This document shows positions 5,720 through 46,400 of a stretch of 64,000 nucleotides of DNA, piece by piece. The first letter of the stretch is position 1. Every line of letters starts with the position of its first letter. A program made the translations under genes and the position numbers. A model generated the notes under the pieces. The model saw nothing but the letters and a program-made list of their open reading frames with translations, was not told where the DNA came from and searched no databases. Source of the DNA: Candidatus Doudnabacteria bacterium (lineage in GTDB: Bacteria; Patescibacteriota; Doudnabacteria; UBA920; O2-02-FULL-48-8); the NCBI GenBank assembly GCA_025450105.1, contig JANWIA010000022.1, positions 5,630-69,629 on the forward strand, given 5' to 3'.

Positions 5720-5729
5720 CGGATGTCTC

Positions 5730-6551: not shown

Positions 6552-6584
6552 CCTATCCTCCTTGTGAACTGCTTGGTCCGGGAC

Positions 6585-14054: not shown

Positions 14055-14110
14055 TGTAATTTTTGGGGTTAAATGCTATATTGAGGCCCTACGAATCGCG
14101 AGGAGGAAAC

Positions 14111-14554
14111 ATGAACGATCCGATCAGCGGAAATCTCATTCTGGTCGCTGAAAACCTGCTCACTGAATACCGCAGGAAGTTGAATTATTTCTTGCATCAC
14201 CATCCAGAGGTCAGTGGGAAATGCTACGAAGCTGCTCCAAACCGTCGTTTAGCTGTAAGGGTCGAGACGTCTGATCTGCCACTCATCCGGGCTGAGCAAA
14301 AAACATCTAACGAGTTCGAGGCGGTCTACATTGCGCTCCTCGAGGTTGCAAAGACTGACAGGGAGTGCAATGCCGCCATGCACGCTTGGCACAAAATCCC
14401 GCCTGGAGAGTATCGCAAAGCGAACCTGATCATCACCATCGTCGATCCCAATCGACCAGTCACGTCCCAGGGGCTTTCTCCTACGGACATGCGCTTCCTG
14501 AAGTCTCTACGCATCAGCGGTGACGGACTCACTGAACCGACAAATCCCACCTAG
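14111..14554 (+). CDS. Hypothetical protein (isolated high-GC insert; ATG at 14111 with AGGAGG SD at 14101-14106)
   Basis: ORF plus strong SD; GC above flanks; no motif. Confidence 0.4.
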   Translation: MNDPISGNLILVAENLLTEYRRKLNYFLHHHPEVSGKCYEAAPNRRLAVRVETSDLPLIRAEQKTSNEFEAVYIALLEVAKTDRECNAAMHAWHKIPPGEYRKANLIITIVDPNRPVTSQGLSPTDMRFLKSLRISGDGLTEPTNPT

Positions 14555-16827: not shown

Positions 16828-16962
16828 TTTTGTGTGGAAAAATAAAGAAAACGGCTCAATGGCCGACTCAATTATACCATATTCCTTAAGGTTTTTGTAA
16901 TTTTGCTTGCAATAGTTTTTTTATATATACTCTAGGTAGCAATAACATCAAGGAGGCACTTG

Positions 16963-17334
16963 ATGCCACGCGTTCGAGATACCAGGAAACCTGCTGAACC
17001 CGAGCCGTATATCGATCCGTACACTACTCCGTCCAGACAACGAAGGGGTGAGGTACACATCGGTCAGACGGTCATCGAGATTGGCCACTTTGATCCATCG
17101 CAAGTTATCCCGCTCCTTGATGAAGAAGAGTGTCCGCACCTGAAGGATCTGCGCGCCGACAAAGAACTCGAGGTTGAGTACAGGCCCTCCCGGATCCGCC
17201 TCATCTTCAGCAGAAGCTGCAAGGCCCACAAGCCTGAAGAGGTCTACCACTACCTTCGCGATAACCTGTTCCCCAACTGGAAGGAACAGGACGACGCTGA
17301 ATTTCTCCTCATGCTCGAAGACGTCGCGGCCTAA
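16963..17334 (+). CDS. Hypothetical protein (isolated high-GC insert; ATG at 16963 with AGGAGG SD at 16951-16956)
   Basis: ORF plus strong SD; GC above flanks. Confidence 0.4.
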   Translation: MPRVRDTRKPAEPEPYIDPYTTPSRQRRGEVHIGQTVIEIGHFDPSQVIPLLDEEECPHLKDLRADKELEVEYRPSRIRLIFSRSCKAHKPEEVYHYLRDNLFPNWKEQDDAEFLLMLEDVAA

Positions 17335-18460: not shown

Positions 18461-18510
18461 ATCCTGACGGATGTCAGGATATAAAACAGATCCTGAAACA
18501 AGTTCAGGAT
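18461..18510. repeat. Palindromic hairpin repeat units (atcctgac-ggat-gtcaggat; atcctgaa-acaag-ttcaggat)
   Basis: Same family. Confidence 0.7.
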
Positions 18511-23393: not shown

Positions 23394-24545
23394 CTATTCT
23401 TTGGTTCGGTCCTGATAATTTTCTAGTAAGTGGTCAAATTTTTCGGTTTCGATTGTTTCGCGGATCCGCGTCATGAGATTTAAATAGAATCGGAGGTTGT
23501 GCATGGTCGCTAAACGAATTCCGAGTGGTTCTTGTGAGGCCAACAAATGGCGGATATAAGCGCGAGTAAAGTTCATGCAGCCGTAGCAATTACAGGCATT
23601 ATCAACTGGCGTAAAATCTTCCTTAAATTTTTCGTTCATGATATTCATGGTCACGTAGCCTTCACCTTCGCCTGGTTTGAGGTTAACATAAAACTTTCCA
23701 TGTCGCGCTTCGCGGGTTGGAATAACACAATCAAAACTGTCGCAGCCAAGTCCCACTGCGCGGACAATTTGTTCCGGCGTTCCCACGCCAAGTAAGTGCT
23801 TGGGTTTTTCTTCTTCCAAATGCGGCATGGAATAACTTACGGCGTCATACATTCGCTGTGGGTCTTCACCGCCGTTGGCCACGCCACCAATGCAATAGCC
23901 GGGAAAATCGAGACTGCGAATTTCTTCTGCGGATTGTTTTCGTAAATCCGGAAAAATTGCGCCCTGAACAATTCCCCATTGCATTTGACCGGGATTGATA
24001 GAATTCGCCACTAATTTTTTATGTTCTTCCTTGGCACGCGCCGCCCACATACTGGTGCGCTCCACCATTGCGCGAACGACTTCCTTGTCGGCCAATGCGC
24101 CGGGAAACTCATCCAAAACAAGTGCTATGTCTGAACCCAAATTCAATTGGATCTGCACGGATTTTTCTGGCGTCAAAATAAAAGTGCTGCCATCAACTTC
24201 GGACTGGGATTGCACGCCGTTATCGGAAGTCTTAACCATTTTGGCCAAAGAAAAAACTTGGAACCCGCCGGAGTCGGTAAAAATTGCGGATTTCCAGTTC
24301 ATGAACTTGTGCAGGCCGCCGGCTTTGGCAATCAAAGCGTCACCCGGCCGCTGCCACAAATGGTAAGTGTTGGCTAAAATCATTTCCGCGCCCCAAAATT
24401 TTAATTCTTCCGCGGCAATGGATTTAATGGCACCCTTAGTGCCAATGGGGTTAAACACCGGTGTCTTCACATCACCATGCGCCGTGTGAATGACCCCCAG
24501 CCTGGCCTTGCTCTTTGAATCTTTTTTGAGAATTGTAAATGACAT
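23394..24545 (-). CDS. tgt: Queuine tRNA-ribosyltransferase (tRNA-guanine transglycosylase)
   Basis: Full-length Tgt similarity; Zn site CxCxxC...H near C-terminus (CNCYGCMNFTRAYIRHL). Confidence 0.9.
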   Translation of the reverse strand: MSFTILKKDSKSKARLGVIHTAHGDVKTPVFNPIGTKGAIKSIAAEELKFWGAEMILANTYHLWQRPGDALIAKAGGLHKFMNWKSAIFTDSGGFQVFSLAKMVKTSDNGVQSQSEVDGSTFILTPEKSVQIQLNLGSDIALVLDEFPGALADKEVVRAMVERTSMWAARAKEEHKKLVANSINPGQMQWGIVQGAIFPDLRKQSAEEIRSLDFPGYCIGGVANGGEDPQRMYDAVSYSMPHLEEEKPKHLLGVGTPEQIVRAVGLGCDSFDCVIPTREARHGKFYVNLKPGEGEGYVTMNIMNEKFKEDFTPVDNACNCYGCMNFTRAYIRHLLASQEPLGIRLATMHNLRFYLNLMTRIRETIETEKFDHLLENYQDRTKE

Positions 24546-24565
24546 ATGTATCGAAATTGGTTACC

Positions 24566-24635
24566 ATCCCGAATTTGACCCGTCTGACGGGTCTTGTTTC
24601 GGGATCCAAAATAAGATCCTGACATTCGTCAGGAT
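24566..24635. repeat. Composite palindromic repeat: atcccgaa...ttcgggat enclosing gacccgtc-t-gacgggtc, followed by atcctgac-attc-gtcaggat
   Basis: Same family; nested structure. Confidence 0.7.
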
Positions 24636-24689
24636 GGATTAAATCAACAGAATTAGTTTAACATTTTTTGGATAAAAAAACACCCGGGA

Positions 24690-25124
24690 TCACCATGAAT
24701 GGGATCCCGGGGTCGTGTAGTCGACGCTCGGAAGAAGCTTGGTTCTGGCACGGGCAGATGTCTGCTTGACCTTTAACCGCTTAAATCTTGAACGCTTCAT
24801 CTCCAGCTCGTCAGTCGTGGAGAGATGGTCTCGAAAACAATTCGGACAATTCCCCTCAAAGTAGTAAAATCCATCCTTGGCAGGAGCGGCCCGGAACTCG
24901 TCACTTACGCCCGGGATTAGCTTTGAAAGGTTGAGGGAACTCTTGCATCTCGTGCACTGGAACATCATGTACGGAAAATTGTCGCCGGACTTGCAGTGCG
25001 GACACAAACCGTCCGGATTTTCCATCCGCTCCTTGTTTAAGAACACCAAGCCGCAGTTCTCGCAAAGGTATTCTTGTTCCGGGTCCTTGCAAGCCATCGG
25101 CACTTTTGGCTTCGCCACGATCAC
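24690..25124 (-). CDS. Cys-rich hypothetical protein with four CxxC pairs (tandem zinc-ribbon-like)
   Basis: CENCG, CPHCK, CTRCK, CPNC; high GC; AAGGAGG SD. Confidence 0.45.
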   Translation of the reverse strand: MIVAKPKVPMACKDPEQEYLCENCGLVFLNKERMENPDGLCPHCKSGDNFPYMMFQCTRCKSSLNLSKLIPGVSDEFRAAPAKDGFYYFEGNCPNCFRDHLSTTDELEMKRSRFKRLKVKQTSARARTKLLPSVDYTTPGSHSW

Positions 25125-25220
25125 CTCCTTGATCTTAAACGGGATTATACAGTATGGCCGAAATAAAACAAAACGCCGGGAGGTGAGTACCTACCCGGCG
25201 TTGCGAAAGTTGAAAACGGT

Positions 25221-25673
25221 TTAGAGGAAGCTCGTCCATGCGTAGACGATGGCACCGGCCAAAACTGCTGCCTTGGCGAAATTCTGTAGACGACCCTTGA
25301 GGTTGTCCGCGAAAGTCCTTCTGCGAAGTTCCTCAAGATTGTCAGCCCAGTACCGAACGCAGGCTTGACGACGATCATCCGTCGCCTCGTCCCACGAACT
25401 GTACGCTTCTTCGACCTCGAATTCCGTGATTCCCATGATCCTCGCCACGAACTTGGTCATGTTCTTTCGATTCATTCGCGCCTTGATCTTTTCGATATCG
25501 ATCGGACGATCGAGGATGGTGAATACCATGATCGCCATGGGACAAACGACGTTGCCTCCATTCGGATCGTACCAGTCGCCGTGAGCGAGTTTTTCGGCGG
25601 AAGTCAGCGCGACCAGACAAGCTTCCTGGTGCTCGGCCGCGACGAGTACTGTTGGCACATCTCGCATGTACAT
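25221..25673 (-). CDS. Hypothetical protein (high-GC island)
   Basis: ORF with GGAGGA SD. Confidence 0.4.
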   Translation of the reverse strand: MYMRDVPTVLVAAEHQEACLVALTSAEKLAHGDWYDPNGGNVVCPMAIMVFTILDRPIDIEKIKARMNRKNMTKFVARIMGITEFEVEEAYSSWDEATDDRRQACVRYWADNLEELRRRTFADNLKGRLQNFAKAAVLAGAIVYAWTSFL

Positions 25674-25794
25674 CAGATCCTCCGTTTCTGTTTCAGCCTA
25701 TGCAAGTTAAAGAAATGATACCAACCAGTTTCCTTTCTGGCAAACAAAACCTCTGCCATAAGTCTAACAATGGCAGAGGCCTTCCTCATGACTT

Positions 25795-26310
25795 CTAGAG
25801 CTTCTTGATAGAGGACAGCTTCTCGATCGCAGCGCGCAGCTGTTCCGAGAAGATACCCAATTGTTCCGAAGGAATCTCGTCGTCACCGGGTATGCTGTAG
25901 GGTCGTTTGAACTGGAATTCTCCTTCAAGTGGGAAGGGCAGCACAAACTTAGGTCCAAAATTCGCCACAGGACCCGCGGCTCCGAAGGGATTAGGGCAGA
26001 CTTCCGGATCTCCCATTGCCGTCATCCACAGGACATGAAGCTTGATCCGGAGCATGTAGGTCTTAACTTCGAACTTTTCGATGACCCACGTGCCGGTCTG
26101 TGACCAGATGCGACCTTGGGCAACCACTGGTGAAGGCACTTCGACTTCCATTAATGCACTCTCCAGCATGCCCGTCACGTACTCAATGACCTGCCCGTGA
26201 TGCAGCTTCACCAGGTACTCTTTCACCTTGGGATCATCGTTTCGAATGACCGGATTCACTTCTACCCGGCTTAGTTCTGAAGGCTTGGATTTCTTTTTCC
26301 CCTTTGCCAT
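25795..26310 (-). CDS. Hypothetical protein with Lys-rich N-terminus (high-GC island)
   Basis: ORF with AGGAGG SD. Confidence 0.4.
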   Translation of the reverse strand: MAKGKKKSKPSELSRVEVNPVIRNDDPKVKEYLVKLHHGQVIEYVTGMLESALMEVEVPSPVVAQGRIWSQTGTWVIEKFEVKTYMLRIKLHVLWMTAMGDPEVCPNPFGAAGPVANFGPKFVLPFPLEGEFQFKRPYSIPGDDEIPSEQLGIFSEQLRAAIEKLSSIKKL

Positions 26311-26358
26311 CCGTTCCTCCTTGTTCGCAAATGATAGCAGATCCCTGATTATTTTCCC

Positions 26359-26444
26359 ATCCCGAACTTATTTCGGGATCTTTTTTTAAGAGATCCTGAA
26401 ATGAATTCAGAATGGTATTAATAATCCCCGCTCGTGCGGAGATT
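26359..26444. repeat. Palindromic repeat units (atcccgaa-cttat-ttcgggat; degenerate atcctgaa..ttcagaat; atccccgc..gcggagat)
   Basis: Same family. Confidence 0.6.
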
Positions 26445-26447
26445 AAA

Positions 26448-26675
26448 TTACTTAGGAGTGCCTTTTGATTTCCTGTTATTCCATTTTTCTTTCCATTTGT
26501 CCCAGAAGGTTAAGCGGATGCCCCAGATTCCAAATCCAAAAAAGATTAACCATGAACCGGGAGTTAATGGAGTGACTAATGCAACCAGACCGATCAAAAT
26601 TAAAACGATGCCAAGAATTCTTTTGGCTAATGATGCTTGTGACGGGGTAAATTCAAAAATATCTTTCCAATTCAT
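26448..26675 (-). CDS. Small two-TM membrane protein, PGPGW-like motif (LTPGSW)
   Basis: Hydrophobic segments flanking a Pro-Gly turn; 75 aa. Confidence 0.3.
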   Translation of the reverse strand: MNWKDIFEFTPSQASLAKRILGIVLILIGLVALVTPLTPGSWLIFFGFGIWGIRLTFWDKWKEKWNNRKSKGTPK

Positions 26676-26825
26676 GCAATAAGGATACCACCCTGCATAC
26701 TATTGTTCAATGAGACAAAATAAAAAAGGGTGCCGATCCTGGGAACATCCCAAGCTTCCGGCACCCTGCCCAGCTATCCCGTTCCTGCGTTTAAAACGGG
26801 AGTCACCAAACCTCAATCTTGTAGT

Positions 26826-27026
26826 TCAAGGTCCAACGATCAGCTTTGGATCCTTTTCGCCCAACGCCAACGCATCAACCTTCTTGCACTCAAAAGGCTC
26901 TGCGATCAGACGACCCGCCTTGTCCGTTGTAATCCGAATGGACGCTTTTCCACGATGCACAACAACGGTGTCGCCCTCATCCGTATCAACAACCAACGGT
27001 GTCTTCTTCACCATTGTGATAACCAT
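26826..27026 (-). CDS. Small hypothetical protein, about 66 aa (start at MVITM, GGAGG SD)
   Basis: ORF plus SD; high GC. Confidence 0.3.
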   Translation of the reverse strand: MVITMVKKTPLVVDTDEGDTVVVHRGKASIRITTDKAGRLIAEPFECKKVDALALGEKDPKLIVGP

Positions 27027-27074
27027 GATTCCTCCGTACTTGAGGAACATCATACCACAGATCCGAATGACGGA

Positions 27075-28790
27075 CTATGGTTCAATTGGAGCCAAGGGTG
27101 GTTTCGGTGTAAGCGGGGCTTTTAGATTCTCAATAAAGTAGTCTCCGTCTTCATCAATATTAATAACTCGGGCAGCACCGTCTAAGTCCTGTTCAATGCG
27201 AGGAGCACCGACATAGAAGATACGGCTAGCACCATCAGCCTTCACTTTAAGTAAATCAGAACTGTTAATCCGAGCTCGGGTTGCACCATCGGCATCAATA
27301 TCCGCAGACTTGCCCACCAATTCGATTCCGTTAAAACTGGATGCGCCGTCAATCTTCAAAACCACAGTTGGAGCTGTACCAAACAAAGTTGCTCGCGACG
27401 CACCGTCCATGCCTGCGGTCAAAGTACCAGTTAGTTTAAGTCCCATGTTCAAGCGCGACGCGCCATCTAAATTGACTTCAAAATCTTTGGTAGCAAATTC
27501 CGCAGACTCAATCCGCACCGCACCGTCGGCTATGACCGACGTCAGTTGCGGCATGGTGATATCAACCGTTACCGGCTCGTCCCAACAAATAAAACAAAAA
27601 TGGTTACGGGAATCTTGTCGCATCTTCAGGGCGTCTTCGAATTTCTCAACTTGGAATGATTCCATATCAATCTGCCGGCCATGGGCCACAACAGAATAAT
27701 CTTTCCCCTGTTTAATATTCACGCGCACTGCACTCGACACGGCCAATTTGGTAAAGTCACTAATCTCGTATATTTCGGAAACCTGCTGGACTTGCGGCAA
27801 ACTTTCGTAGCGGGCTTTTAATTCCGGACCGAATCGGCTGGCCACAACGCCACCAGTCATCAAAAATACAAACCAAGCCACAGCCAAACCAATTATCATG
27901 GCAACCTTAATAGTACTTTTACCGCGGACCAAAGAAATACCAAGCATCAACATCAAATACAGCGGGATGATGACAATGGCAAAGGCCAAGAGCAACAATC
28001 CAACATATTGCCACCCAGTGACAATCTGCGACAACGGCAAATCCATGTATTCGGAATTGCGGTTGAACAATGCCACGGCAAACGCAAACGTTGTGGCGAC
28101 AATGCTAACCGTTGTGGCAAAGGTCACAACAACCCCTATAAACTTTACTATAATTGTAAACAGCAAACGGATTAATCGACCCAGTCCTACAAAGAATCTT
28201 TTAAAAAAATTGCTGTTTTTGGCGTCATTGATTCTATCCTTTACAGTTTTCTGAATTCCGGATAAATCTACACCTTGCCCGCGCATCTGCGATTTTTGTT
28301 CCGCAGTTTGGGCTGACGGCGTTAAGACCCACATGATAATATAGATAACTACCCCTGCGCCACCCGACAAAGTAATCAGCACAAACAACAATCGGAACAG
28401 AATTGGATCAACACCAAAGTAAGCGCCCAAACCAGAAGACACACCGCCAACCATTCCGTTTTGTTCGTCCCTGAACAATCTTTTGCCAGACTTTGTCTCT
28501 TCAGTTTTTTCGGGTTGTTCCGCGCCGGAATCAAAATCTTCAACCCGGCCCATACTTTTAATCAGCTTCTGGACCTCATCCAAGGTTACAATCTTATCCT
28601 TTAATTTATCCTTGCCAGACAAAAATTGTTCCGCCATGCGCGATTCCATATCCGAAATAATCTCATCCTTATTTGGATCCGCAGCAAAATGATTTTTAAT
28701 AGATTTTAAATATTCATCGAGTACCACAAAAGCATCGTCCTCGATGTAGAAGATGGAACCTCCTATATTGATGCTAATTGTTTTTTTCAT
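27075..28790 (-). CDS. PspC-domain membrane protein with C-terminal DUF4097/DUF2807-like beta-repeat region (DGASR repeats)
   Basis: GGVSSGLGAYFGVDPILFRLLFVLITLSGG is the PspC signature; seven DGA(S/T)R-containing repeats at the C-terminus. Confidence 0.7.
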   Translation of the reverse strand: MKKTISINIGGSIFYIEDDAFVVLDEYLKSIKNHFAADPNKDEIISDMESRMAEQFLSGKDKLKDKIVTLDEVQKLIKSMGRVEDFDSGAEQPEKTEETKSGKRLFRDEQNGMVGGVSSGLGAYFGVDPILFRLLFVLITLSGGAGVVIYIIMWVLTPSAQTAEQKSQMRGQGVDLSGIQKTVKDRINDAKNSNFFKRFFVGLGRLIRLLFTIIVKFIGVVVTFATTVSIVATTFAFAVALFNRNSEYMDLPLSQIVTGWQYVGLLLLAFAIVIIPLYLMLMLGISLVRGKSTIKVAMIIGLAVAWFVFLMTGGVVASRFGPELKARYESLPQVQQVSEIYEISDFTKLAVSSAVRVNIKQGKDYSVVAHGRQIDMESFQVEKFEDALKMRQDSRNHFCFICWDEPVTVDITMPQLTSVIADGAVRIESAEFATKDFEVNLDGASRLNMGLKLTGTLTAGMDGASRATLFGTAPTVVLKIDGASSFNGIELVGKSADIDADGATRARINSSDLLKVKADGASRIFYVGAPRIEQDLDGAARVINIDEDGDYFIENLKAPLTPKPPLAPIEP

Positions 28791-29130
28791 ACGATTTGAT
28801 TAATTGGTTAATAGATTTATTTAAATTTTCCCAGTTGTCCGTAAGATTCTTTAACGTTTCCTTGCCCTTATCTGTTAGCGAATAATATTTGCGCGGCGGC
28901 CCAGAATCTGATTCGTTCCATTTATAACTTAACAGCCCAGTAGTTTTAAGTCTGCTAAGCAGCGGGTATAAAGTTCCTTCGACCACAATTAAATCAGCTT
29001 CTTTAAGCTGATTTAAAATATCGGTGGCATAAACCTCACCGCGGCCAATAATGAGCAAAATGCAGAACTCCAAAGTTCCTTTGCGCATCTGGGCCTTATT
29101 GTTTTCTAGGTCTGTTTCTGGGGTTTTCAT
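28774..29130 (-). CDS. PadR family transcriptional regulator
   Basis: Winged-helix block ILNQLKE...EGTLYPLLSRLKTTGLL; overlaps start of the downstream PspC gene. Confidence 0.8.
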   Translation of the reverse strand: MKTPETDLENNKAQMRKGTLEFCILLIIGRGEVYATDILNQLKEADLIVVEGTLYPLLSRLKTTGLLSYKWNESDSGPPRKYYSLTDKGKETLKNLTDNWENLNKSINQLIKSYEKNN

Positions 29131-29188
29131 ATATAAACCCAGTATAAACTATAAGTACCTTGCAATGCAAGGTACTATGTGTGGATAA

Positions 29189-29755
29189 TTACTGTTCCAT
29201 CATTTTAATAAACAAACCACGATTGTCTCGAAGTTGTTGCAGTAATGCTCCGTTAATCAAAACAATATCTTTTTTCTTGGACGCCCAGTCCACTGCCCTA
29301 CTACTAAACCTACTTGTTGTAAAAATAAAAACCTTATCATATCCACCGTACGACTTTACTCCATACATATCCCGGACAACAGTTTCATCTACGTTTCGCC
29401 ACTTGCCGTATTTTTTACACTGAACACAAAATCTTTTTCCTTTATATTTAACTTCTACATCAATACCATGATCAAACCCAGTTTTAGCCTCACGTTTAGA
29501 TAAAACTGCTTCAGCGCCAGCATTTATAAAAAGACCTTGCACCCAAACTTCGAATGCTTCCGGAGTTAAGCCTTTAATTAAATTATGGACTCTTCCGTGC
29601 TTTAACATTAAAGTTCTTGCGCGCTTCTTTCTGTATTCATATCGAAGCAATAATAAAAGGATGATAAACAAAATTATCATTCCTAGTGCTATAGCAAGAT
29701 TAAGTGAACTGATTCCTGAACTATTTTGTAATGACGGATTTAAATATGTAGTCAT
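29189..29755 (-). CDS. Membrane-anchored Mrr-like restriction endonuclease catalytic-domain (PD-(D/E)xK) protein
   Basis: One N-terminal TM, then FEVWVQGLF...GFDHGIDVEVKYKGKRFCVQCKKY resembling the Mrr_cat core. Confidence 0.55.
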   Translation of the reverse strand: MTTYLNPSLQNSSGISSLNLAIALGMIILFIILLLLLRYEYRKKRARTLMLKHGRVHNLIKGLTPEAFEVWVQGLFINAGAEAVLSKREAKTGFDHGIDVEVKYKGKRFCVQCKKYGKWRNVDETVVRDMYGVKSYGGYDKVFIFTTSRFSSRAVDWASKKKDIVLINGALLQQLRDNRGLFIKMMEQ

Positions 29756-29800
29756 AAAAAAGGTGAAGGCACTCCTGCAGCGCAGAAGTGCCTTATGGGA

Positions 29801-30025
29801 TTAGGCAAGGCCTAGGTCGAAAGAAGCGAGAACTCGCCTCAACCAGTCAATGGTCTTATCATCAACTTGAGGGATTCTTTTCAGATCCCTGACCAACACA
29901 CCTGCCACATCCCGAACATAGACGTAGCCTCGCTGCCTCAGCACACCCAATCGAGGGCGGCCCTCCGGAAATTTCATCCGAAGCATTACGAGTGATAGAT
30001 CGCGTGGATCTCTCAGCTTCTTCAT
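29801..30025 (-). CDS. Hypothetical Arg-rich 74-aa protein (high-GC patch, AAGGAG SD)
   Basis: ORF plus SD. Confidence 0.3.
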   Translation of the reverse strand: MKKLRDPRDLSLVMLRMKFPEGRPRLGVLRQRGYVYVRDVAGVLVRDLKRIPQVDDKTIDWLRRVLASFDLGLA

Positions 30026-30112
30026 TTTGACTCCTTTGTTGAAAGGTAGTGAAATCCACGAGGGATTTCACAAGGTATCAAAATGAGAATTCAGCCAAAA
30101 CGGCCAACGTCT

Positions 30113-32440
30113 CTATGTGTCCCCCTGCGGATTTCTGTCTATAAGATAGTAATAAGCTTCCGCTTTGTCAAACAAAAAGAGCGCTATAGCGCTCTTTTTT
30201 AAATATTCGTGTCTTCCTGCGAAACGGGGGCCGCCGCGACGTGGGCCACGGTCGTTGCTACCTCGATCATCTCGTCGTGGTCCGCGGTCGTGTGGTCGGT
30301 CGTCGATTGTGCCGCCTTCTGGGCGAGGCAACATGACTTTGTGACTAAGATTGATTCGGCCCATGTGGTCGATCTCAACAACTTTAACTTCCAATTCATC
30401 GCCGATTTTTACAACATCTTCTACTTTGCCAACGCGCTGCCAGGCCAATTCAGAAATATGACACAAGCCGTCATGGCCCGGGGTCAACTCAACGAAAGCA
30501 CCAAAGTCCATGATGCGGTTAACTTTTCCCTTAAAGACTTCACCAATTTTAATTTCGCGAGTAAGATTATGAATCCAATCAATCGCCTTCTTTGAACCTT
30601 CGGCATCGTTGGACGTAACCATAACCAAACCGGAATCTTCAATGTCAATCTGCACGCCGGTTTCGGCAATAATTTTATTAATGACCTTACCGCCGGTTCC
30701 AATAACGTCGCGGATTTTTTCTGGGTTAATCTGCAAAGTGGTAATGCGCGGAGCATACTTGGACATTTCGGCGCGAGGTTGGGCAATAGCTTTTTGCATG
30801 ACAGAAAGAATGTGCAAGCGGCCGGCTCGGGCTTGAGTCAGCGCGTCAGCCAAAATTTCTACGGTCAGGCCTTTGGTCTTGTTATCCATTTGCATGGCAG
30901 TAATGCCTTTTTCGGATCCGGTAACTTTAAAGTCCATGTCGCCGTTACCATCTTCAATACCTTGAATGTCAGTGAGAACTTTATACTTGCCGCTGGCCGG
31001 ATCAAAAACCAATCCCATGGCCACACCACCAATCATGTCGGTGATTGGAACCCCGGCATCCATTAATGCCAAAGATGAGCCGCAAGTCGAAGCCATAGAT
31101 GTGGAACCGTTTGAACCCAAAGCTTCGGAAACCAATCGCAAAGTGTAAGGGAATTTTTCCTTTTCTGGAATAACCGGTTCGATTGCTCGTTCTGCCAAAG
31201 CGCCGTGTCCGATTTCGCGTCGGCCCGGGCCGCGGATAGGAGCAACTTCACCAACTGAATATCCTGGGAAATTGTAGTGATGAATGTAACGCTTGGTTGT
31301 GCCGTCGACACCAAAGTCTTCCATGCCATCCAAAATTTGAGCGTCGCCAGAAGAACCTAGGGTAACAACAGTAAGAATTTGGGTTTCGCCGCGATTGAAC
31401 AAAGCAGAACCATGCACGCGAGGGAGCACGCCAACTTTACATGAAACTTCGCGAGTCACGTTAAGTGGTCGTTCGTCTATGCGTCGTTCTTTTTCTAAGA
31501 TGTTCTTGCGAATAACTTTCTTTAAAACTTTTTCAAAGGCAAGTTTAGTGTGAGACTTAATGTTGAGCTCTGTATTGTCTTTAAACTTTTCTGCCACAGC
31601 AACTGCAACATCTTCGGCAATTTTAGCAATGCGTCGTTCGCGTTCAGCTTTATCGAATGTTCCGTACATTTCGGCGTCGAGTCGTGGTTCGGCAATTGCC
31701 TTAACTTCCGCCAAAACTTTTTCATCTGGCAAAACGAGTTTTACTTCCAATTTTGGAACACCAAGTTGTTTAACCAACTTGTTTTGAAGTTCAATTAATT
31801 CGCCCAATGGTTTTTGAGCAAACTTAATGGCTGCGGCCATGTCGGCTTCGGTAATTTGTTTAGCGCCAGCTTCCACCATCATAATATGTTCGCCGGTTCC
31901 AGAAACAACTAAATCTAAGTCGCCATTCTTACGATCTTCGTAAGATGGATTGATTTGAAATTCACCATTTAAGCGGCCAACACGAACAGCGGCAACTGGA
32001 CCTTCAAATGGAATGTTAGACATGCCAAGTGCGGCAGATGCGGCATTGATTGCCATAACATCTGGATCATTTACTTCATCAAGAGAAAGTGTAGTGGCAA
32101 CAATTTGAACATCATTGCGCATGCCGTCTTGGAATAGTGGGCGCAAAGATCGGTCTAAAAGACGGCCAGACAAAACTGCTTCGTCTGTAGCACGGCCTTC
32201 ACGCTTAATAAAGCGAGAGCCTTTGATTTTTCCCGCGGCATAAAGTCTTTCCTCATAATCAACAAGTAATGGAAAGTATTCCATTCCGTCGCGAATATTT
32301 TTGCCCATTGTTGCGGTAACCAAAACCACCGTGTCGCCAAGTTGCGCGACAACGGAACCGTTGGCCTGTTGGGCCAACTCACCGGCTTCGAGCGAGAATT
32401 TCTTCCCGGCTAGATCCAGCTCTACCTTTGTATTCTTCAT
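30113..32440 (-). CDS. pnp: Polynucleotide phosphorylase (PNPase); start at MKNTKVELD; Arg/Gly-rich C-terminal tail; stop as predicted lies beyond the terminator hairpin
   Basis: Two RNase PH domains, KH and S1 domains recognisable. Confidence 0.9.
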   Translation of the reverse strand: MKNTKVELDLAGKKFSLEAGELAQQANGSVVAQLGDTVVLVTATMGKNIRDGMEYFPLLVDYEERLYAAGKIKGSRFIKREGRATDEAVLSGRLLDRSLRPLFQDGMRNDVQIVATTLSLDEVNDPDVMAINAASAALGMSNIPFEGPVAAVRVGRLNGEFQINPSYEDRKNGDLDLVVSGTGEHIMMVEAGAKQITEADMAAAIKFAQKPLGELIELQNKLVKQLGVPKLEVKLVLPDEKVLAEVKAIAEPRLDAEMYGTFDKAERERRIAKIAEDVAVAVAEKFKDNTELNIKSHTKLAFEKVLKKVIRKNILEKERRIDERPLNVTREVSCKVGVLPRVHGSALFNRGETQILTVVTLGSSGDAQILDGMEDFGVDGTTKRYIHHYNFPGYSVGEVAPIRGPGRREIGHGALAERAIEPVIPEKEKFPYTLRLVSEALGSNGSTSMASTCGSSLALMDAGVPITDMIGGVAMGLVFDPASGKYKVLTDIQGIEDGNGDMDFKVTGSEKGITAMQMDNKTKGLTVEILADALTQARAGRLHILSVMQKAIAQPRAEMSKYAPRITTLQINPEKIRDVIGTGGKVINKIIAETGVQIDIEDSGLVMVTSNDAEGSKKAIDWIHNLTREIKIGEVFKGKVNRIMDFGAFVELTPGHDGLCHISELAWQRVGKVEDVVKIGDELEVKVVEIDHMGRINLSHKVMLPRPEGGTIDDRPHDRGPRRDDRGSNDRGPRRGGPRFAGRHEYLKKSAIALFLFDKAEAYYYLIDRNPQGDT
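30174..30207 (-). terminator. Intrinsic terminator hairpin at the 3-prime end of pnp
   Basis: Perfect palindrome agagcgctatagcgctct flanked by A/T runs. Confidence 0.6.
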
Positions 32441-32485
32441 TGAGAACCTTTTGTTTCCGCTGTTGTATCTAGTAACACAAGTCAT

Positions 32486-32944: not shown

Positions 32945-33122
32945 GTGTTTCCTTTGTCACGCAGCGGCCAGGACAAGCCACTCGTCGAATTAATTAAAGT
33001 TACTTTACCACATTTTTCCCTTTTTCGCAAATGTCGCACAACCAATACTTTTTTGCATTGTACGACAATGCTATAATTAATATATGAACTGGATCCTGAC
33101 CTCCGTCAGGATGACAATACTT

Positions 33123-34082
33123 ATGCCTGAAACTAAAATCACCAAATTAGACCGCTATTACATTCAATTCCTGGAATATATGGAAATTGAACGTAACCGA
33201 TCCAAGCTTACCTTGCGAAATTACGACCACTATCTTAAACGATTTGTGGAGTTTTGTAAGTCTCAGGGCGTCACTGACCCCGAAGACGTTGATTTGGAAT
33301 TAGTCCGTTCATTCCGCTTATACTTAAACCGCTTAACCGAAAAGAATAAATCGCTCAAGATAATTACCCAGAATTATCACTTAATCGCCATTCGAAGCTT
33401 TTTAAAGTATTTAGCCCGCCGCGACATTAAATCTTTAGCTGCGGAAAAGATAGAATTGCCAAAAACACCCTCGCGATCTGTGAGTTTTTTGGAAGTCGAC
33501 GAAGTCGAACGGTTACTCGACGCCACGAACCAGGAAAAGGATAAATTGACCAGATTGCGCGACCGCGCAATTCTTGAACTGTTATTTTCCACTGGCCTGC
33601 GTATTTCAGAACTCGTTAGTCTCAAGAAGGACCAAGTAAACATTAAGCGCGGCGAATTTTCTGTCCGCGGTAAAGGCGACAAAATGCGCTTGGTATTTTT
33701 ATCTGACCGCGCCAAGAATGCACTTGAAGCTTATGCCAAAGCTCGCACTGACAATTCCAAAGCAATTTTCATCCGTCACGATTCTAAGGAATCCGTAGAA
33801 CAACAAATGAAATCTTTGGACAAACCAATGCCTGGATTAACCCCACGCACGGTTCAGCGATTGATAATAAAATATCAACTGCTTGCCGGAATTACAAAAA
33901 GTATCAGTCCACATACTTTACGCCATTCATTTGCTACGGACATGCTGGCCAATGGTGCAGACTTGCGATCAGTCCAAGAATTGCTAGGTCATGCCTCAAT
34001 TTCGACTACACAAATTTATACTCACTTAACCAACAAACGTTTACGGGATATTTACGACAAATTCCACAATCAAAAGCATTAG
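33123..34082 (+). CDS. Tyrosine site-specific recombinase XerC/XerD family
   Basis: C-terminal catalytic box HTLRHSFATDMLANGADLRSVQELLGHASISTTQIYTHL (R..HxxR..Y). Confidence 0.8.
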   Translation: MPETKITKLDRYYIQFLEYMEIERNRSKLTLRNYDHYLKRFVEFCKSQGVTDPEDVDLELVRSFRLYLNRLTEKNKSLKIITQNYHLIAIRSFLKYLARRDIKSLAAEKIELPKTPSRSVSFLEVDEVERLLDATNQEKDKLTRLRDRAILELLFSTGLRISELVSLKKDQVNIKRGEFSVRGKGDKMRLVFLSDRAKNALEAYAKARTDNSKAIFIRHDSKESVEQQMKSLDKPMPGLTPRTVQRLIIKYQLLAGITKSISPHTLRHSFATDMLANGADLRSVQELLGHASISTTQIYTHLTNKRLRDIYDKFHNQKH

Positions 34083-34087
34083 TTCAG

Positions 34088-34234
34088 ATCCTGACATTCG
34101 TCAGGATGGGTAAAAACATAACCCCATCCTGAATTTATTTCAGGATCTCAATCAGATCCCAAAACAAGACCCGTCTGACGGGTCAAGTTCGAGACGAAAA
34201 AAAACAACATGCAATCGCGGACTTGATCCGCGAT
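34088..34234. repeat. Cluster of four palindromic repeat units downstream of the xer gene
   Basis: atcctgac-attc-gtcaggat, atcctgaa-tttat-ttcaggat, degenerate unit with inserted gacccgtctgacgggtc, atcgcgga-cttga-tccgcgat. Confidence 0.7.
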
Positions 34235-36116: not shown

Positions 36117-36166
36117 GATCCCGAAACTAGTTCGGGATGGGTAACCATCCTGATCGATAAGTCAGA
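36117..36166. repeat. Palindromic repeat units (atcccgaa-actag-ttcgggat; degenerate atcctgat..gtcagaat)
   Basis: Same family. Confidence 0.6.
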
Positions 36167-37749: not shown

Positions 37750-39711
37750 ATGTTTGGCAAACTCACATTAGCAGCGCTCCCACACGAATGGTTCACGATT
37801 GGCGGCACATTGTTTATGGCCGCATCGGGAATCGTGCTTTTTGCCGCGTTGACCTACTACAAAAAATGGGGCTGGTTGTGGAATGACTGGCTGACTTCCA
37901 CTGACCCAAAAAAAATCGGGATCATGTACGTCATTGTTGCGGCCGCGATGTTTGCGCGCGGCGCCTTGGATGCGGCCATCATCTGGTTTCATCAAGCAAT
38001 TTCGGTTGGACCAAATTCAGGATTGATGGACGCCGATCATTTTCAGCAAATCTTTACCGCCCATGGCGACATCATGATCTTTTTCGTGACCATGGGATTT
38101 TTGTTTGGTTTGCTTAACTACATTGTTCCGCTGCAAATTGGCGCGCGCGACGTGGCCTTCCCGTTCCTGAACACTTTAGGATTCTGGTTGTTTGTTGCCG
38201 GAGCGATTCTCATTAATTTATTCTTTGTCCTTGGCGGGGATTTTGCGGCCACGGGTTGGCTGGCGCAGGCGCCACTGTCGGAACTGGAATTCAGCCCCGG
38301 GGTCGGCGTGGATTATTGGATCTGGAGTTTGCAGGTTTCCGGACTCGGTACGCTGTTGGGCGGCATTAATTTATTAGTGACGATTTTAAAAATGCGCGCG
38401 CCAGGCATGACGCTCATGAAAATGCCGTTGTTTGTTTGGACCACGCTCTGCAGTATGGTCTTAGTCACGACAATTTTCCCAATCCTGACCATGACTATCT
38501 TCCTATTGTTCGTGGACCGGTATTTTGGCATGCACTTTTTTACTACCACCGGCGGCGGCAATCCAATGATGTACACCAACTTAATTTGGATGTGGGGCCA
38601 TCCGGAAGTTTATGTTTTAATTTTACCGGCGTTTGGGATTTATTCGGAAGTTGTCCAAACCTTTAGCCAAAAACGGTTAGCTGGTTACGTGTCGCTGGTT
38701 TGCGGCGCAATCGGCATTTCCATATTGGCGCTTGTCGTTTGGTTGCATCACTTCTTTACCATGGGCGCCGATTCCAATGTCAACGCCTTCTTTGGATTGA
38801 TGACTATGCTCATTGCTATTCCGACTGGTGTGCAAATTTTGAGCTGGCTAGCCACAATGTATAAAGGCAGGATCAAATTCACAACGCCAATGAAATGGTT
38901 TTTGGGATTCGTCAGCACTTTTACTTTTGGCGGCATGGCCGGACTGTTGTTAGCCGCGCCTCCTGCCGATTTCCAACTACATAACAGTTTATTTTTGGTC
39001 GCACACGTCCACACCATGATTGTCGGCGGCGCCCTGTTTGGAATTTTTGCCGGAATTATTTATTGGTTTCCAAAAGTTACCGGCTTCAAGCTTAACGAAA
39101 AAATCGGCAACTACGCATTTTGGTTTTGGCTGGTCGGGTTTTTCCTGTCCTTTACCCCACTTTATATTTTGGGGTTGATGGGCGCCACACGCCGCTTGGA
39201 CCACTATGAAGCATCAACCGGTTGGCAACCGCTGTTTATTGTTTCGGCCATCGGTTTGGTTGTCATTGCCATTGGTTTTGGTTTGCAGCTGTTGCAAATT
39301 TTCGTCAGCTACCTGCAGCGCAAACAAAATGCCGACACCACGGGCGATCCATGGAACGGCCGAACACTGGAATGGATGACCCAGTCCCCGCCGCCGGTTT
39401 ATAATTTTGCGATTGTGCCTCATGTAGAATCCCGCGAACCGCTGTGGGACTTGAAGCAGGCAGGAGGCAGAAGGCAAGAGACAGGACAATACGAAGATAT
39501 TCATATGCCAAAAAATACACCGCTGGGAATTTATACTGCCGGTTTTGCTTTCTTAATTGGTTTTGCTTTTATTTGGCACATTACTTGGTTGGTCATCGTC
39601 GGGTTAATCGGCGCCGTTGCCTGCATGATTTGGCGAACATTTGATGATGAGACGGAATATAAAATTAAAGCCTCAGAACTGGCAAAAATGGAATCAAAAC
39701 GAAACCTATGA
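37750..39711 (+). CDS. cyoB: Cytochrome bo3 ubiquinol oxidase subunit I (heme-copper oxidase)
   Basis: WMWGHPEVYVLILPAFG and His ligand pattern; 653 aa; start overlaps cyoA stop. Confidence 0.95.
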   Translation: MFGKLTLAALPHEWFTIGGTLFMAASGIVLFAALTYYKKWGWLWNDWLTSTDPKKIGIMYVIVAAAMFARGALDAAIIWFHQAISVGPNSGLMDADHFQQIFTAHGDIMIFFVTMGFLFGLLNYIVPLQIGARDVAFPFLNTLGFWLFVAGAILINLFFVLGGDFAATGWLAQAPLSELEFSPGVGVDYWIWSLQVSGLGTLLGGINLLVTILKMRAPGMTLMKMPLFVWTTLCSMVLVTTIFPILTMTIFLLFVDRYFGMHFFTTTGGGNPMMYTNLIWMWGHPEVYVLILPAFGIYSEVVQTFSQKRLAGYVSLVCGAIGISILALVVWLHHFFTMGADSNVNAFFGLMTMLIAIPTGVQILSWLATMYKGRIKFTTPMKWFLGFVSTFTFGGMAGLLLAAPPADFQLHNSLFLVAHVHTMIVGGALFGIFAGIIYWFPKVTGFKLNEKIGNYAFWFWLVGFFLSFTPLYILGLMGATRRLDHYEASTGWQPLFIVSAIGLVVIAIGFGLQLLQIFVSYLQRKQNADTTGDPWNGRTLEWMTQSPPPVYNFAIVPHVESREPLWDLKQAGGRRQETGQYEDIHMPKNTPLGIYTAGFAFLIGFAFIWHITWLVIVGLIGAVACMIWRTFDDETEYKIKASELAKMESKRNL

Positions 39712-40289
39712 TGCACACCGATGCCGGCCATAAAAATGTTTTAGGATTTTGGATCTATTTAATGACCGATCTTTTGATGTTCGCGGTTTTGTTTGCAACC
39801 TACGCCGTGTTGCGCACTAGCACGTTTGGCGGCCCGACCGAAAATGAATTGTTCAGCCTGCCCTTTGTTTTGATCGAAACCATGATCCTTCTAACCAGTA
39901 GTTTTACTGTCGGCGTGGCAATCCTAAACGTTGATCGCGAAAAAAATGCCATAAGGCACGTTGCAACTTGGCTCATCATTACTTTCGTGCTTGGTGTTTC
40001 GTTCTTGGCCATGGAACTCGACGAATTCGGAAAACTTATTGCCGACGGCCACAACTGGCAATCGAGCGCTTTCTTGTCGTCATTCTTTTCCTTGGTTGGC
40101 ACCCATGGCTTGCACATTGCCAGCGGTTTGCTCTGGATCCTGATCATGCTGGTTAAAATGTGGCAGCGCGGAGAAATCAACCACAACACCGCCCGGCAAA
40201 TTACTTTACTAAGCTTATTCTGGCACTTCCTGGATGTCGTTTGGATCTTCATTTTTAGTTTTGTTTATCTAATGGGAGTAGGCTTATGA
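39708..40289 (+). CDS. cyoC: Cytochrome bo3 ubiquinol oxidase subunit III
   Basis: 5-TM subunit III similarity; ATGA overlap with cyoB. Confidence 0.85.
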   Translation: MMHTDAGHKNVLGFWIYLMTDLLMFAVLFATYAVLRTSTFGGPTENELFSLPFVLIETMILLTSSFTVGVAILNVDREKNAIRHVATWLIITFVLGVSFLAMELDEFGKLIADGHNWQSSAFLSSFFSLVGTHGLHIASGLLWILIMLVKMWQRGEINHNTARQITLLSLFWHFLDVVWIFIFSFVYLMGVGL

Positions 40290-43447: not shown

Positions 43448-46400
43448 CTAAACCTTTAAGTCCTGGCTGACCCAGCCGTTGCCTGTGGTAAGTTCTTTTT
43501 GAAGGTGGCGAGGTTGTGGCACATCCCCGGATGTAGATGCATGCAGGTAGTACTTCCCTTTTGGAACCATCATAAAATATCGGCCGCGGAAATCCGACAC
43601 CGCAAAGGTCACGCGGTTGTTGGCGAGATCAGTCAAATAGATTGGGGCCAGGGCCATTGGCAAACCGGTGGCGCTGTTTCTGATGATGCCAAACGGTTTT
43701 GGCCGGATCTTAAGCAGGCGAGCAATGGCAATGAACACAAACAGGACGATCAATCCAAAACTGATGACATCCGGCTGGGCAATATAGCCGGCGACCGTAA
43801 GCGGAAACGCGGCCCAAAATGAGAAATTCGAAAAAGTGATCAAGGCTTTCCTAAACAAAGCCCGGGGCGAAGTTCTGGTTTTGGCAATTGGATCCATCGG
43901 TAAATCTAAATTGGAGCTTTGCTGTGGATTGACCGTAATCATGCCGCCCAAATATATGTCCCCGAATGGCATGTTGGCCATATCGGCAAAAGTTTTTTGG
44001 GTTGGGAATTTATATTTTGGGTGCTCGGCAAAAAATTGAATTTTCTGCTCCGATCCGGCCAGGCCTCGCGGCGAAATCAAAAATGCATACCGCCCATCCG
44101 GGCCGGCAATGGTTGATTCCAAAATTTTTAATCTTTCATTTAAGACATTAACATGGGCATGTGGAATCGGCTGCAAAGTTTTGGAATCAAAAACCACGCC
44201 CCAAGGGTTTCGTTTACGGCGCAACCCCAGCGCTTCCATCAAAGCCAAAATCCAATACTTAAAATAATTAACGCTGTTCAAACCGCTAAGCAAATCAATC
44301 AAAGCAGAACCGGTGGTAATCAACGGCGTGATCAAAAGCAAAAACGTTATAAACCTCAAACTCATCGTCCCACCCGGTACCATCTCCAAAATTTCCTGGG
44401 TCGATTCCTGGACTTGGTCCGGGACAAAACCTTGGGTGAAATCAAACGCCCCGCCAGAACCTTCATCATCTGTATCAACACTGCCCCCGCCATTTGGTCG
44501 GTCGATAGGCGGAGGTGGCGGAGTAATACTTGGCGTTTCCGGATCAGATGGTCCTGGAGGAGTCACCGGTGGCGGTGGCGGCGGATCTGGTAATGGTTCG
44601 TTGGTTTCGGTATCGAATCGTGATGGGCCGCCGGAAGAAGAGTTGTCCAACAAGACAGCCTGTTCCTCGTCAGTGTCATTTGCATAAACAAAAACGGTAT
44701 AAGTCCCTTCAACTGCTCCCGGCGGAATCACAACGGAAAATCCATGATCATCCGGATATCCAGTTACGTCATTAACATCCGGTCTTGGGTCATCGGCGAC
44801 AATAACAATCGGATCAGAGTCAGGAGAAGTCGGGTCTTCAAAATAAATTTCAATCGTTACCGGTGCATCCGGATCGTTTGGATCCACGGCCCAACCAGTG
44901 ATGACCGTGCCGCCATTTGTGCCATTCTCGTCAACGTGACCAATCGGATCGTCATTGCCTGGAGGGATAATTACTGGATCGTGGTCACAAATTACTGGCG
45001 GGGAAACATATAGGCTGTTGATGAACGCCCGGGTTGGCGTGACCAAATTACCGCTTTTGCCATTATTACCGATTAGATCAGCGTAGGCAGTTTGGAAACG
45101 GCGGACTGCATCACGGGTGTTGTCGCCGTAATACTCAACCTCGTGGCCCGGTGAACCAGCGCCACTTAGCGCGACCATGAATCCGTTATCGTTCAAAAAC
45201 CTCTGCAAATATACAACCTGCGGATGTGTTTGCCGATGCGAAATGTTTTCGGAAAATGAAATTTCCGGCGGACGCAACTGTATCGGCGGATACGACACAC
45301 AATCCGGTTCTGCAGGTGGAGGCGGCGGGATCACAACCGGCGGCGGCGGAGGTGGTGGTGGAGTTTCCGCTGCGGTCAGGACAATTGTATCCGACACAAC
45401 TTGCGACGAAGAATTTATATTTTTATAAAAACGAACATAGACAGTATAAGTTCCCGGCTCACAGGTAGATGTGAACTCACAAATGTCCCAGGATATAGTT
45501 TCCTCATAATCCATTTGCTCGTATGGTGACAACAATGAATGATCTGAGATCCTGATGTAGTTGGCATCCGGTCCGCCGGACAAAGTTAAAGTTACATTCC
45601 TGGAATTGGTTGTTGTGTCGCCAGAATTTATCGTCACCCTAAAGCCACCGTTAGGCTCCTGCATACCATTATTATTGTTTCCTCCCCCGCCCCCGTCTGC
45701 TGCGGCAGAAGTTGTGGCGGAATCAGTAACCGCTGAAGTTTCTGTTCCGTCGCCATTGCGGGCTTTCACGGAAAAATTATAAAGCGTGGATGGTGACAAC
45801 GAAGTAGACATCCACGATACACCGTCCGCGACCCAACCCGAATCTGTTGATGCTGTTGTGTTAGCGGCAAAAAATGCCGTACCGGCCGGGTTACTGTTGA
45901 CGTTCCAAGTTGCCGTAATTTGAGAGGATGAATCAACAGTTAATATTAAGGCGCTTGGCGGATTGGCCAAAGTATATGCGCTGCTATTGGCAGAGTTGGC
46001 AGTATTGCCTGCTAAATCTGTGACTGTTACAAAGAAAGTGTACTGGACATTAACGCTTAATCCATTGCTGGCCCACGACGTACCGGCTTGCGCTCCAGAA
46101 CTGGTCGCCGCGGTGGAGTTTTGAATATTATATGGTGCTGCTGCCAAACCAGATAAAGCATCCGAAGCACCGGCAACCGTTGCGGTTATCGATGATGTTG
46201 TAATTGTCCCTGTAGAAACTGTTCCTGCAGTTGGTGCGGCAGTATCAACCTTAAAGGCAATCGCGCCGCTATTGGCGGTCGAATAAGAAGATTCGGCAGC
46301 CGAATTATCAATGGCTTTTACTTGCCAATAGTAGCCGGAGCTGTCGGCCAAGGTTTGCCCGCCTGATCCTGTAGTATACGATCCACCGCCAGCCGCTTGG

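Follow-up and report, generated by a model that had tools for sequence, protein, structure and literature searches.

The stretch of DNA at 24690-27053 in a contig of a metagenome-assembled genome (MAG) of Candidatus Doudnabacteria, a lineage of the candidate phyla radiation (CPR, Patescibacteria), raises the question of whether five small genes lying in a row beside tgt form one uncharacterised accessory system, as an original prediction made from the letters alone had proposed. Positions refer throughout to the 64,000-nt stretch that was analysed as a whole, hereafter the window, and the genes and signals of the block lie on its minus strand. The answer favoured here, with a probability of about 0.6, is that the block is not one system; it can be considered part of a two-layer flexible islet carrying a 1.6-kb foreign insert of three autonomous genes. 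The layer of native composition would comprise an Mrr-like nuclease, a PadR regulator, a PspC/DUF2807 envelope-stress-type membrane protein and the genes designated p66 and PGPGW, and the foreign layer (24690-26310) would consist of three autonomous, 'moron-like' units, zn144, p150 and p171, each with its own -10 box, strong Shine-Dalgarno (SD) sequence and intrinsic terminator, whose products would most likely be non-enzymatic binding proteins. The idea of a single system is unsupported, given predicted terminators after four of the five genes, the two compositional layers and homologues of p171 that stand alone in unrelated neighbourhoods.

Most of the gene structure originally described was confirmed. 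The five consecutive open reading frames (ORFs), zn144 (24690-25124, 144 aa), p150 (25221-25673, 150 aa), p171 (25795-26310, 171 aa), the PGPGW gene (26448-26675, 75 aa) and p66 (26826-27026, 66 aa), are present, and tgt (PF01702, E=4.5e-135) adjoins them immediately downstream of zn144. The elevated GC content of the first three is real, 0.52-0.54 overall, with values at third codon positions (GC3) of 0.66, 0.65 and 0.62, respectively, which is 3.0 to 3.7 standard deviations above the 36 long genes of the window (0.459±0.054). The high GC content of p66 (0.507) and the ordinary one of the PGPGW gene (0.377) also stood. Of the SD sequences, AGGAGG for zn144 and p171 and GGAGG for p66 are as described; p150 has GGAGG and not the AGGAGG ascribed to it.

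Similarity searches returned little for these products. No match to p150, p171 or p66 was found in Pfam, PHROGs, PADLOC or NCBIfam, zn144 obtained only sub-threshold zinc-ribbon scores there, and no PHROG match of the block was significant. In PADLOC-DB 2.0 none of the five proteins had a match at E<=1, and the neighbouring Mrr-like protein alone matched nuclease models. Neither zn144, p150, p171 nor p66 has relatives in IMG/VR, the three GC-rich proteins yielded nothing when compared by tblastn with GenBank phages and PLSDB plasmids, and searches of PDB sequences with zn144, p150, p66 and the p171 profile gave only chance-level matches. No enzymatic or toxin-like motif was found in the products of the block. 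A scan of 24300-27300 against Rfam revealed no RNA family, the best E values (0.14-0.22) lying under the gathering score. Within a collection of 15 billion proteins the proteins of the window are singletons.

The place of the block in the genome is more informative. It belongs to a hypervariable islet of nine genes at 24546-30112, delimited by synteny and cargo clustering and lying between the start of tgt (24545) and the stop of pnp (30113), the latter encoding a 790-aa polynucleotide phosphorylase (PNPase) at 30113-32485. Read from the pnp side, the order is a 74-aa orphan, a membrane-anchored Mrr_cat protein, PadR, PspC-DUF2807, p66, PGPGW, p171, p150 and zn144. The two flanking genes are co-oriented neighbours in 79 related loci; the spacer between them is shorter than 500 bp in 24 of the 79, often 150-360 bp, and reaches 2.3-8.6 kb only in the clade nearest to the window (tgt identity of at least 73%), the spacer of the window itself measuring 5.6 kb. 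The nearest tgt genes are 81-82% identical, their carriers being Doudnabacteria or mislabelled 'Saccharibacteria' MAGs together with metagenome contigs. The cargo differs in nearly every genome, and 134 of the 145 clusters of gap ORFs are singletons. In the nearest relative (L001, hotspot stretch L001:1433-10000) the spacer holds genes for NYN, aminoglycoside 2''-nucleotidyltransferase-like, APH-type phosphotransferase, P-loop kinase, MOSC and Mrr_cat proteins as well as proteins of no assigned kind. The pnp-tgt spacer is thus a recurrent hotspot across Doudnabacteria. As part of the favoured explanation, and at the same odds, the spacer was ancestrally short and the islet has grown in the pnp-tgt gap of this genome.

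Searches with tblastn and phmmer of about 160 related loci for the five proteins revealed no relative, save for a PGPGW domain in one of them (L012), and the five genes are missing even from relatives at 80-82% tgt identity. The suggested comparison of gene order therefore found no conservation: the five-gene order does not occur in these loci. The products are also not fragments of housekeeping genes, and the block is consequently neither housekeeping nor conserved in the lineage, the two outcomes named beforehand as speaking against an accessory block. Its accessory, inserted character is upheld by the variable spacer, by the absence from the related loci and by the non-native dinucleotide signature of the three GC-rich genes. 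No integrase was found between pnp and tgt, nor any insertion sequence (IS) element, direct repeats or tRNA gene in the islet. The sole tRNA gene of the window is at 7766-7851, away from the islet, and the only nearby tyrosine recombinase (33084-34082) is of the Xer type and keeps the same position in 30 relatives regardless of the cargo. A separate observation concerns the short spacers (150-250 nt by tblastn ends) of seven relatives (L017, L023, L034, L044, L050, L064 and L103), which have a GC content of 0.53-0.62, the genomes having 0.39-0.44; they may correspond to a structured element, or to the C-terminal tail of PNPase if that was left unaligned.

The division of the islet into two layers comes from its composition. 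No other 1.6-kb segment of the window is as rich in GC as 24690-26310 (0.518 versus 0.445±0.03), and the dinucleotide relative-abundance distance (delta*) of this stretch to the window is 0.160, in the top 1% of sliding windows (0.069±0.028). The remainder of the islet (26311-30112), taken together, is native (0.049). Only the three GC3-rich genes of the five are therefore compositionally foreign: the PGPGW gene lacks the foreign signature, and its short sequence is atypical against both references, while p66, of 201 bp, is uninformative in dinucleotide composition. Fairly high-GC3 genes (0.54-0.58) elsewhere in the window, namely 37750-39711, 39708-40289 and the parB gene at 6738-7691, keep the native signature, so that the foreign one is not a simple effect of GC3. 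The only other comparably deviant region is 4400-6800, which contains the island at 4634-6551 that the original prediction had proposed as a possible companion of the block. The two islands are alike in signature (0.075 versus 0.094±0.037 for random native pairs) and share the same shifts, with AG/CT and GA/TC up and GC and CC/GG down. The proposed link thus holds at the level of composition only, as no sequence similarity was found between the products of the two. The three GC-rich genes were probably acquired horizontally. Their signature names no donor; it also resembles the signature of a further contig of Doudnabacteria (L082) and hence does not discriminate among sources.

Within the foreign segment each gene appears to be equipped for its own expression. 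In the folded intergenic DNA, four of the five genes (zn144, p150, p171 and p66) are followed by a GC-rich hairpin and a T-run, and promoter-like extended -10 boxes lie upstream of all three GC-rich genes. For zn144 the intrinsic terminator at 24674-24711 has a CCCGGGAT/ATCCCGGG stem that overlaps the stop codon and is followed by seven T residues, and the region 25124-25151 contains an SD (AGGAGG, 25124-25129) and an extended -10 box, TGTATAAT (25144-25151), as a consensus-level match. The predicted terminator of p150 lies at 25161-25202 (AACGCCGGG...CCCGGCGTT and a T-run), and upstream of the gene (25679-25743) a GGAGG (25679-25683) is preceded by the promoter-like sequence TTGCCA-17-TG-TATCAT (25715-25743), detected by a promoter scan. 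That of p171 is at 25742-25781 (GGCCTCTGCCAT...ATGGCAGAGG and a T-run), and the signals ahead of this gene (26316-26339), read from the sequence, are an AGGAGG (26316-26321) and the -10-like TGCTATCAT (26331-26339). The hairpin after p66 (26722-26766) is GGGTGCCG...CGGCACCC with six T residues. The terminators and the separate -10 boxes argue against a five-gene operon, and zn144, p150 and p171 appear, from these predicted signals, to be separate transcription units.

The palindromic clusters that were thought to bracket the five genes are real and non-random, although they are not specific to the block. The first (24566-24635), between the terminator of zn144 and the start of tgt, is a double hairpin formed by ATCCTGA-N4-TCAGGAT and then ATCCCGAA...TTCGGGAT with a nested GACCCGTC hairpin; the second (26359-26413), downstream of PGPGW and upstream of p171, is formed by ATTCTGAA-N5-TTCAGGAT and then ATCCCGAA-N5-TTCGGGAT. 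The composite element can be described as hairpin ATCCTGAA-N5-TTCAGGAT, a spacer of about 10 nt and hairpin ATCCCGAA-N5-TTCGGGAT, and the consensus of the family as ATCCYGAA-N5-TTCRGGAT with an 8-bp stem, often in tandem pairs with outer CCATCC/GGATGG complementarity. At least nine copies occur in the window, starting at 567, 600, 18490, 24566, 24616, 26359, 26393, 34126 and 36118 (spans outside the islet 567-620, 18490-18510, 34126-34146 and 36118-36138), all of them intergenic and 3' of a stop codon. Exact ATCCCGAA-N-TTCGGGAT copies number four versus 0.01 expected, and relaxed ones eight versus 1.13, and the family is also present in five related genomes (L009, L011, L012, L013 and L034).

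The second cluster, extending in the earlier description over 26359-26444, lies inside the block, between PGPGW and p171, and the two clusters therefore bracket the three GC-rich genes only. One copy (18490) is located between two conserved genes, and the copies are not found preferentially by variable genes. As a dispersed intergenic family, the repeats are at most weak evidence for a mechanism of insertion. Insertion by recombination between the two flanking copies was considered and rejected; in an unquantified inspection of alignments the two were no closer to each other than to the 567-620 copy, and the family also occurs between conserved genes. Repetitive extragenic palindromes (REP), with the related bacterial interspersed mosaic elements (BIME), are known from Proteobacteria. 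The present elements are REP-like in being short, multi-copy, often tandem and exclusively intergenic, and differ in hairpin sequence, which is unrelated to that of Proteobacteria. No RAYT/TnpA-REP transposase was seen, no search having been aimed at one. A literature search for such elements in Patescibacteria returned nothing relevant, and they are seemingly undescribed there.

Among the foreign genes only p171 has detectable homologues. A word-indexed search of 5.8e9 proteins returned only p171 itself, as it did for zn144 and p150, whereas phmmer against 1.84 billion representatives revealed eight homologues of 124-192 aa, with E values from 6.6e-12 to 1.6e-4 and 23-34% identity. The protein is a genuine member of a rare, uncharacterised family, about 160-190 aa long in the family alignment (A2) and marked by the motifs PSP..IW..TGTW, LxLxW, NP and GFGPGFxLP. 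The invariant residues are W69, T72, W95, P106, F118, F122 and P125, none of them a typical catalytic residue, and p171 would accordingly be a binding or scaffold protein and not an enzyme. An AlphaFold model made with the family alignment reached a predicted local distance difference test score (pLDDT) of 83.8 and has an alpha+beta architecture with a disordered, Lys-rich N-terminus, a helix at residues 27-55, an antiparallel sheet and a C-terminal helix, the layout of the family being helix, beta-meander, helix. Neither model nor profile matched any solved structure or viral model of BFVD, which makes the family, with its confident model, a clean target for structural genomics. Of the 88 pattern matches obtained in a metagenome scan with a closer alignment (A3) none was a true relative.

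The homologues of p171 stand alone in six differing neighbourhoods, in the absence of relatives of zn144 or p150. Their neighbours include a sigma-54 activator with a ROK protein, Dus, a class-II aminoacyl-tRNA synthetase (aaRS) with NUDIX, GreA and MsrA proteins, an aaRS-like core with a CBS protein, and a cyanophycin-synthetase-like ATP-grasp enzyme. It is also worth mentioning that tRNA-related genes, encoding Dus, a class-II aaRS that has an anticodon domain, and an aaRS-like catalytic core of 282 aa, lie directly beside p171-family genes in three of the five informative contexts (P0009, P0010 and P0014; L082:5117-6732), and that p171 of the window is three genes away from tgt; this proximity was noted post hoc, with a rough chance probability of about 0.02. 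The proteins of the family bear basic N-terminal tails.

The two other GC-rich genes could be described from their own sequences. In zn144 the four predicted CxxC motifs (CENC, CPHC, CTRC and CPNC) are present and make up two CxxC...CxxC zinc ribbons, followed by a basic C-terminal tail with ten K/R among the last 40 aa. The count of 144 aa starts from the first GTG (25124); the deposited call, of 142 aa and pI 8.7 (24690-25118), starts from the GTG at 25118, 5 nt after AGGAGG. The first ribbon (residues 18-47) aligns to the FmdB/Zn_ribbon_8 core below the cut-offs (20.4 versus 34.4 bits for PF09723, 19 versus 31.3 for TIGR02605), and the CxxC_CxxC_SSSS families lack the second, long-spaced ribbon and the basic tail of zn144. 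Membership in FmdB/Zn_ribbon_8 was rejected on these scores in favour of a generic double zinc ribbon. Its probable role appears to be that of a small factor that binds nucleic acid or protein. The product of p150 is acidic (pI 5.7) and predicted to be all-helical by a single-sequence model that is unreliable (pLDDT 46). Its 19 C-terminal residues are moderately hydrophobic (mean Kyte-Doolittle value of about 1.5, calculated by hand), and the protein is possibly membrane-associated. In the related loci it shows a weak resemblance to a 111-aa ORF that lies immediately upstream of tgt in L086 (E=0.04).

Whether composition and position together indicate acquisition of separate genes has to be weighed against other explanations. 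The one deserving most attention, doubtful as it is, regards the three as native, lineage-specific genes of Doudnabacteria, fast-evolving or born de novo, with an odd composition that would reflect amino-acid usage or the level of expression. Orphan genes abound in CPR genomes, the related loci often carry small, lineage-specific insertions between conserved genes, and another Candidatus Doudnabacteria MAG contains an annotated homologue of p171 whose composition is native-like and whose GC3 is an ordinary 0.44; that no donor or mobility gene was found fits as well. Such an origin is difficult to reconcile with a signature 3.3 standard deviations off the genome that matches other scattered orphan ORFs of the window, with the native signature kept by the genuine native genes of raised GC3, or with the absence from the closest relatives, and de novo birth from AT-leaning spacers would not yield a GC3 of 0.65. 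It is quite unlikely, in turn, that the three GC-rich genes, or all five, are a single accessory module of a defence, toxin-antitoxin-like or host-interaction kind, acquired as a unit and co-regulated despite the hairpins. The three are adjacent, co-oriented, similar in GC3 (0.62-0.66) and of one foreign signature, as a single acquisition event would produce, the hotspot also holds an Mrr-like nuclease, and in one relative (L081) the p171 homologue overlaps a downstream GC3-rich, Cys-rich ORF of 145 aa. That ORF, however, is unrelated to p150 or zn144, each GC-rich gene is followed by a strong hairpin and T-run, the p171 homologues are found alone in their six neighbourhoods, and neither a database match above cut-off nor an enzymatic or toxin-like motif connects the genes with a known module.

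Highly unlikely is the possibility that zn144, p150 or both are frames left open by chance within a GC-rich insert that is non-coding or decayed. Their lack of homologues, the poor model of p150, long shadow ORFs on the opposite strand and a codon-usage log-likelihood, trained on native genes, that barely separates the frames of zn144 would agree with it. Both ORFs nevertheless fill the space between terminators; their SD sequences lie 5 nt from the start codons, T-run terminators follow on the same strand, and the gene caller of the deposited proteins chose the same ORFs. Codon-position GC is clearly coding-like in p150 (0.58/0.40/0.65), and in zn144 (0.48/0.43/0.66) it is mainly GC3 that is raised; zn144 moreover has four regularly spaced CxxC pairs, the second ribbon weakly matching an 87-aa zinc-ribbon ORF of L005 (E=0.005 among 12,333 ORFs). 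The reading of a two-layer islet with three autonomous foreign genes itself meets several objections. The promoters and terminators are consensus or fold predictions, and read-through could couple the three co-oriented genes; dinucleotide signatures of genes of 300-500 bp are noisy. As the analysis found neither a donor nor an integrase, direct repeat or mobile-element gene, the case for acquisition is made by composition and phylogenetic absence. The Doudnabacteria homologue of native-like composition means that p171 could be an old, fast-evolving lineage gene moved within the genome. For zn144 and p150, which have no homologues, translation is deduced from ORF length, SD, terminator and codon-position GC, and the exhaustive HMMER search covered p171 alone, the other two having been compared by the word-indexed search.

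Several known systems resemble the locus in part. Integration hotspots, or flexible genomic islets between conserved core genes, are an established concept of comparative genomics, and the pnp-tgt spacer resembles them in lying between fixed, co-oriented housekeeping genes with syntenic flanks and in holding mostly unique cargo in each genome; it differs from typical islets in that an integrase, a tRNA gene, an IS element and direct repeats are absent and in that the host is a reduced CPR genome. Phage 'morons' are autonomous units of promoter, ORF and terminator that have been inserted between adjacent genes and have a deviant base composition. The three foreign genes are like them in having their own -10-like box, SD, terminator (consensus-level signals) and deviant composition, and unlike them in being chromosomal, flanked by tgt, PGPGW and PspC with no phage genes around and with no PHROG, IMG/VR or GenBank-phage relatives. 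An integron cassette array was rejected, as the hairpins downstream of the ORFs, read from the sequence, have unrelated GC stems ending in T-runs and lack attC core sites (RYYYAAC...GTTRRRY), the ORFs have their own -10 boxes and the only tyrosine recombinase is the syntenic Xer-type gene. A genomic island or prophage was rejected for lack of an integrase in the spacer, of a nearby tRNA gene and of a significant PHROG match, the flanking palindromes being no more alike than the dispersed copies, and a toxin-antitoxin reading because the defining features are wanting. As for the remaining suggestion of the original prediction, that remote homology and structure prediction might clarify the products, it led to the p171 family with its confident model, and left zn144 and p150 without relatives. 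The block is an ordinary variable islet of orphan genes in a CPR genome, of a known kind with new specific contents, and as a typical flexible islet of hypothetical genes it changes little as it stands. The hotspot can nonetheless be used to study accessory gene gain and loss in the ultra-small genomes of symbionts.

Gene by gene, the dinucleotide signature is bimodal across the window. Apart from the three genes of the block, the ORFs nearer to the islands than to the core are 4577-5125, 5176-5481, 5730-6026, 6193-6567, 14063-14554, 16960-17334, 50597-50983, 50987-51481, 52949-53668 (an acyltransferase) and 60425-60895 (a stand-alone CHC2 zinc finger). Together with those three they make up a scattered class, comprising 13 or more small ORFs (98-239 aa) spread over at least six distinct intergenic sites, with GC3 of 0.55-0.66 and one non-native signature; the pooled distance to the core is 0.176, and that of an independent subset to the two islands 0.057-0.077. 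For most of them Pfam gives no match and the relatives contain no homologue. The ORFs at 14063 and 16960 fill spacers that are short in many relatives, and all members inspected have their own promoter-like box and/or terminator: zn144, p150 and p171, 16960-17334, with a strong terminator of its own, and 14063-14554, with a promoter-like site only. A genome-wide, integrase-free stream of single-gene 'moron-like' acquisitions from one unsampled donor pool is a speculative and rather unlikely extension of these data. If it were true, the pool (a CPR phage, another mobile element or host DNA uptake) would seed autonomous small genes into the reduced genome of an episymbiont, and p171 would be the founding member of a new protein fold family. 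Should the signature of the orphan ORFs hold genome-wide, it would point to a single unsampled donor pool and to integrase-free gene gain in CPR bacteria. The product of 60425-60895, of 156 aa, is essentially a DnaG-type CHC2 zinc finger (PF01807, E=1.9e-10) of foreign composition and may be a primase fragment or a remnant of a mobile element.

The remaining genes of the islet are those of the native layer. The PGPGW gene (26448-26675), of low GC and without an SD, encodes a two-helix membrane protein whose family, already recognised in the original prediction, was verified by PF09656 (31.2 bits versus a cut-off of 23.3, E=1.6e-7). A hydrophobic segment at residues 12-48 forms a two-helix hairpin with a TPGSW turn. 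The protein shares domain and hairpin with PF09656/TIGR02611 but is a minimal, stand-alone version, scoring 23.1 versus a cut-off of 70.6 with TIGR02611; the PGPGW domain of L012 is the N-terminus of a 243-aa protein located 1.7 kb upstream of tgt. A promoter-like site, TTGAAC-17-TGG-TATCCT (26676-26710), below the threshold of the promoter scan and read from the sequence, ends 6 nt before the ATG. As there is no SD and the -10-like TATCCT is so close to the start codon, the mRNA may be leaderless.

The ORF of p66, 66 aa in the deposited call (26826-27026), which starts after GGAGG, is open to 27053 (75 aa), and no significant match was found for it in PDB or IMG/VR or in the family libraries mentioned above. 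It starts 48 nt past the PspC-like gene with no terminator between, and is thus probably the last gene of a PadR-PspC unit. At 27027-27050 the SD of p66 is paired with an anti-SD-like UUCCUC lying upstream, within a hairpin of 7 bp (UUCCUCA...GGAGGAA); this could reflect translational control or chance. The unit itself (27075-29130) is of native composition and consists of a PadR regulator (28774-29130) overlapping a 571-aa membrane protein with PspC, LiaF-like transmembrane (TM) and DUF2807 parts (27075-28790). Beside pnp, at 29189-30025, are the membrane-anchored protein with an Mrr_cat nuclease domain (29189-29755) and the 74-aa orphan (29801-30025); the former has an N-terminal TM helix at residues ~12-42, a GC3 of 0.28 and a 51%-identical homologue in the L001 hotspot. 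Farther away, a single ORF of 1845 aa occupies 43448-48985 on the minus strand, with a GC content of 0.495 and a native dinucleotide signature.

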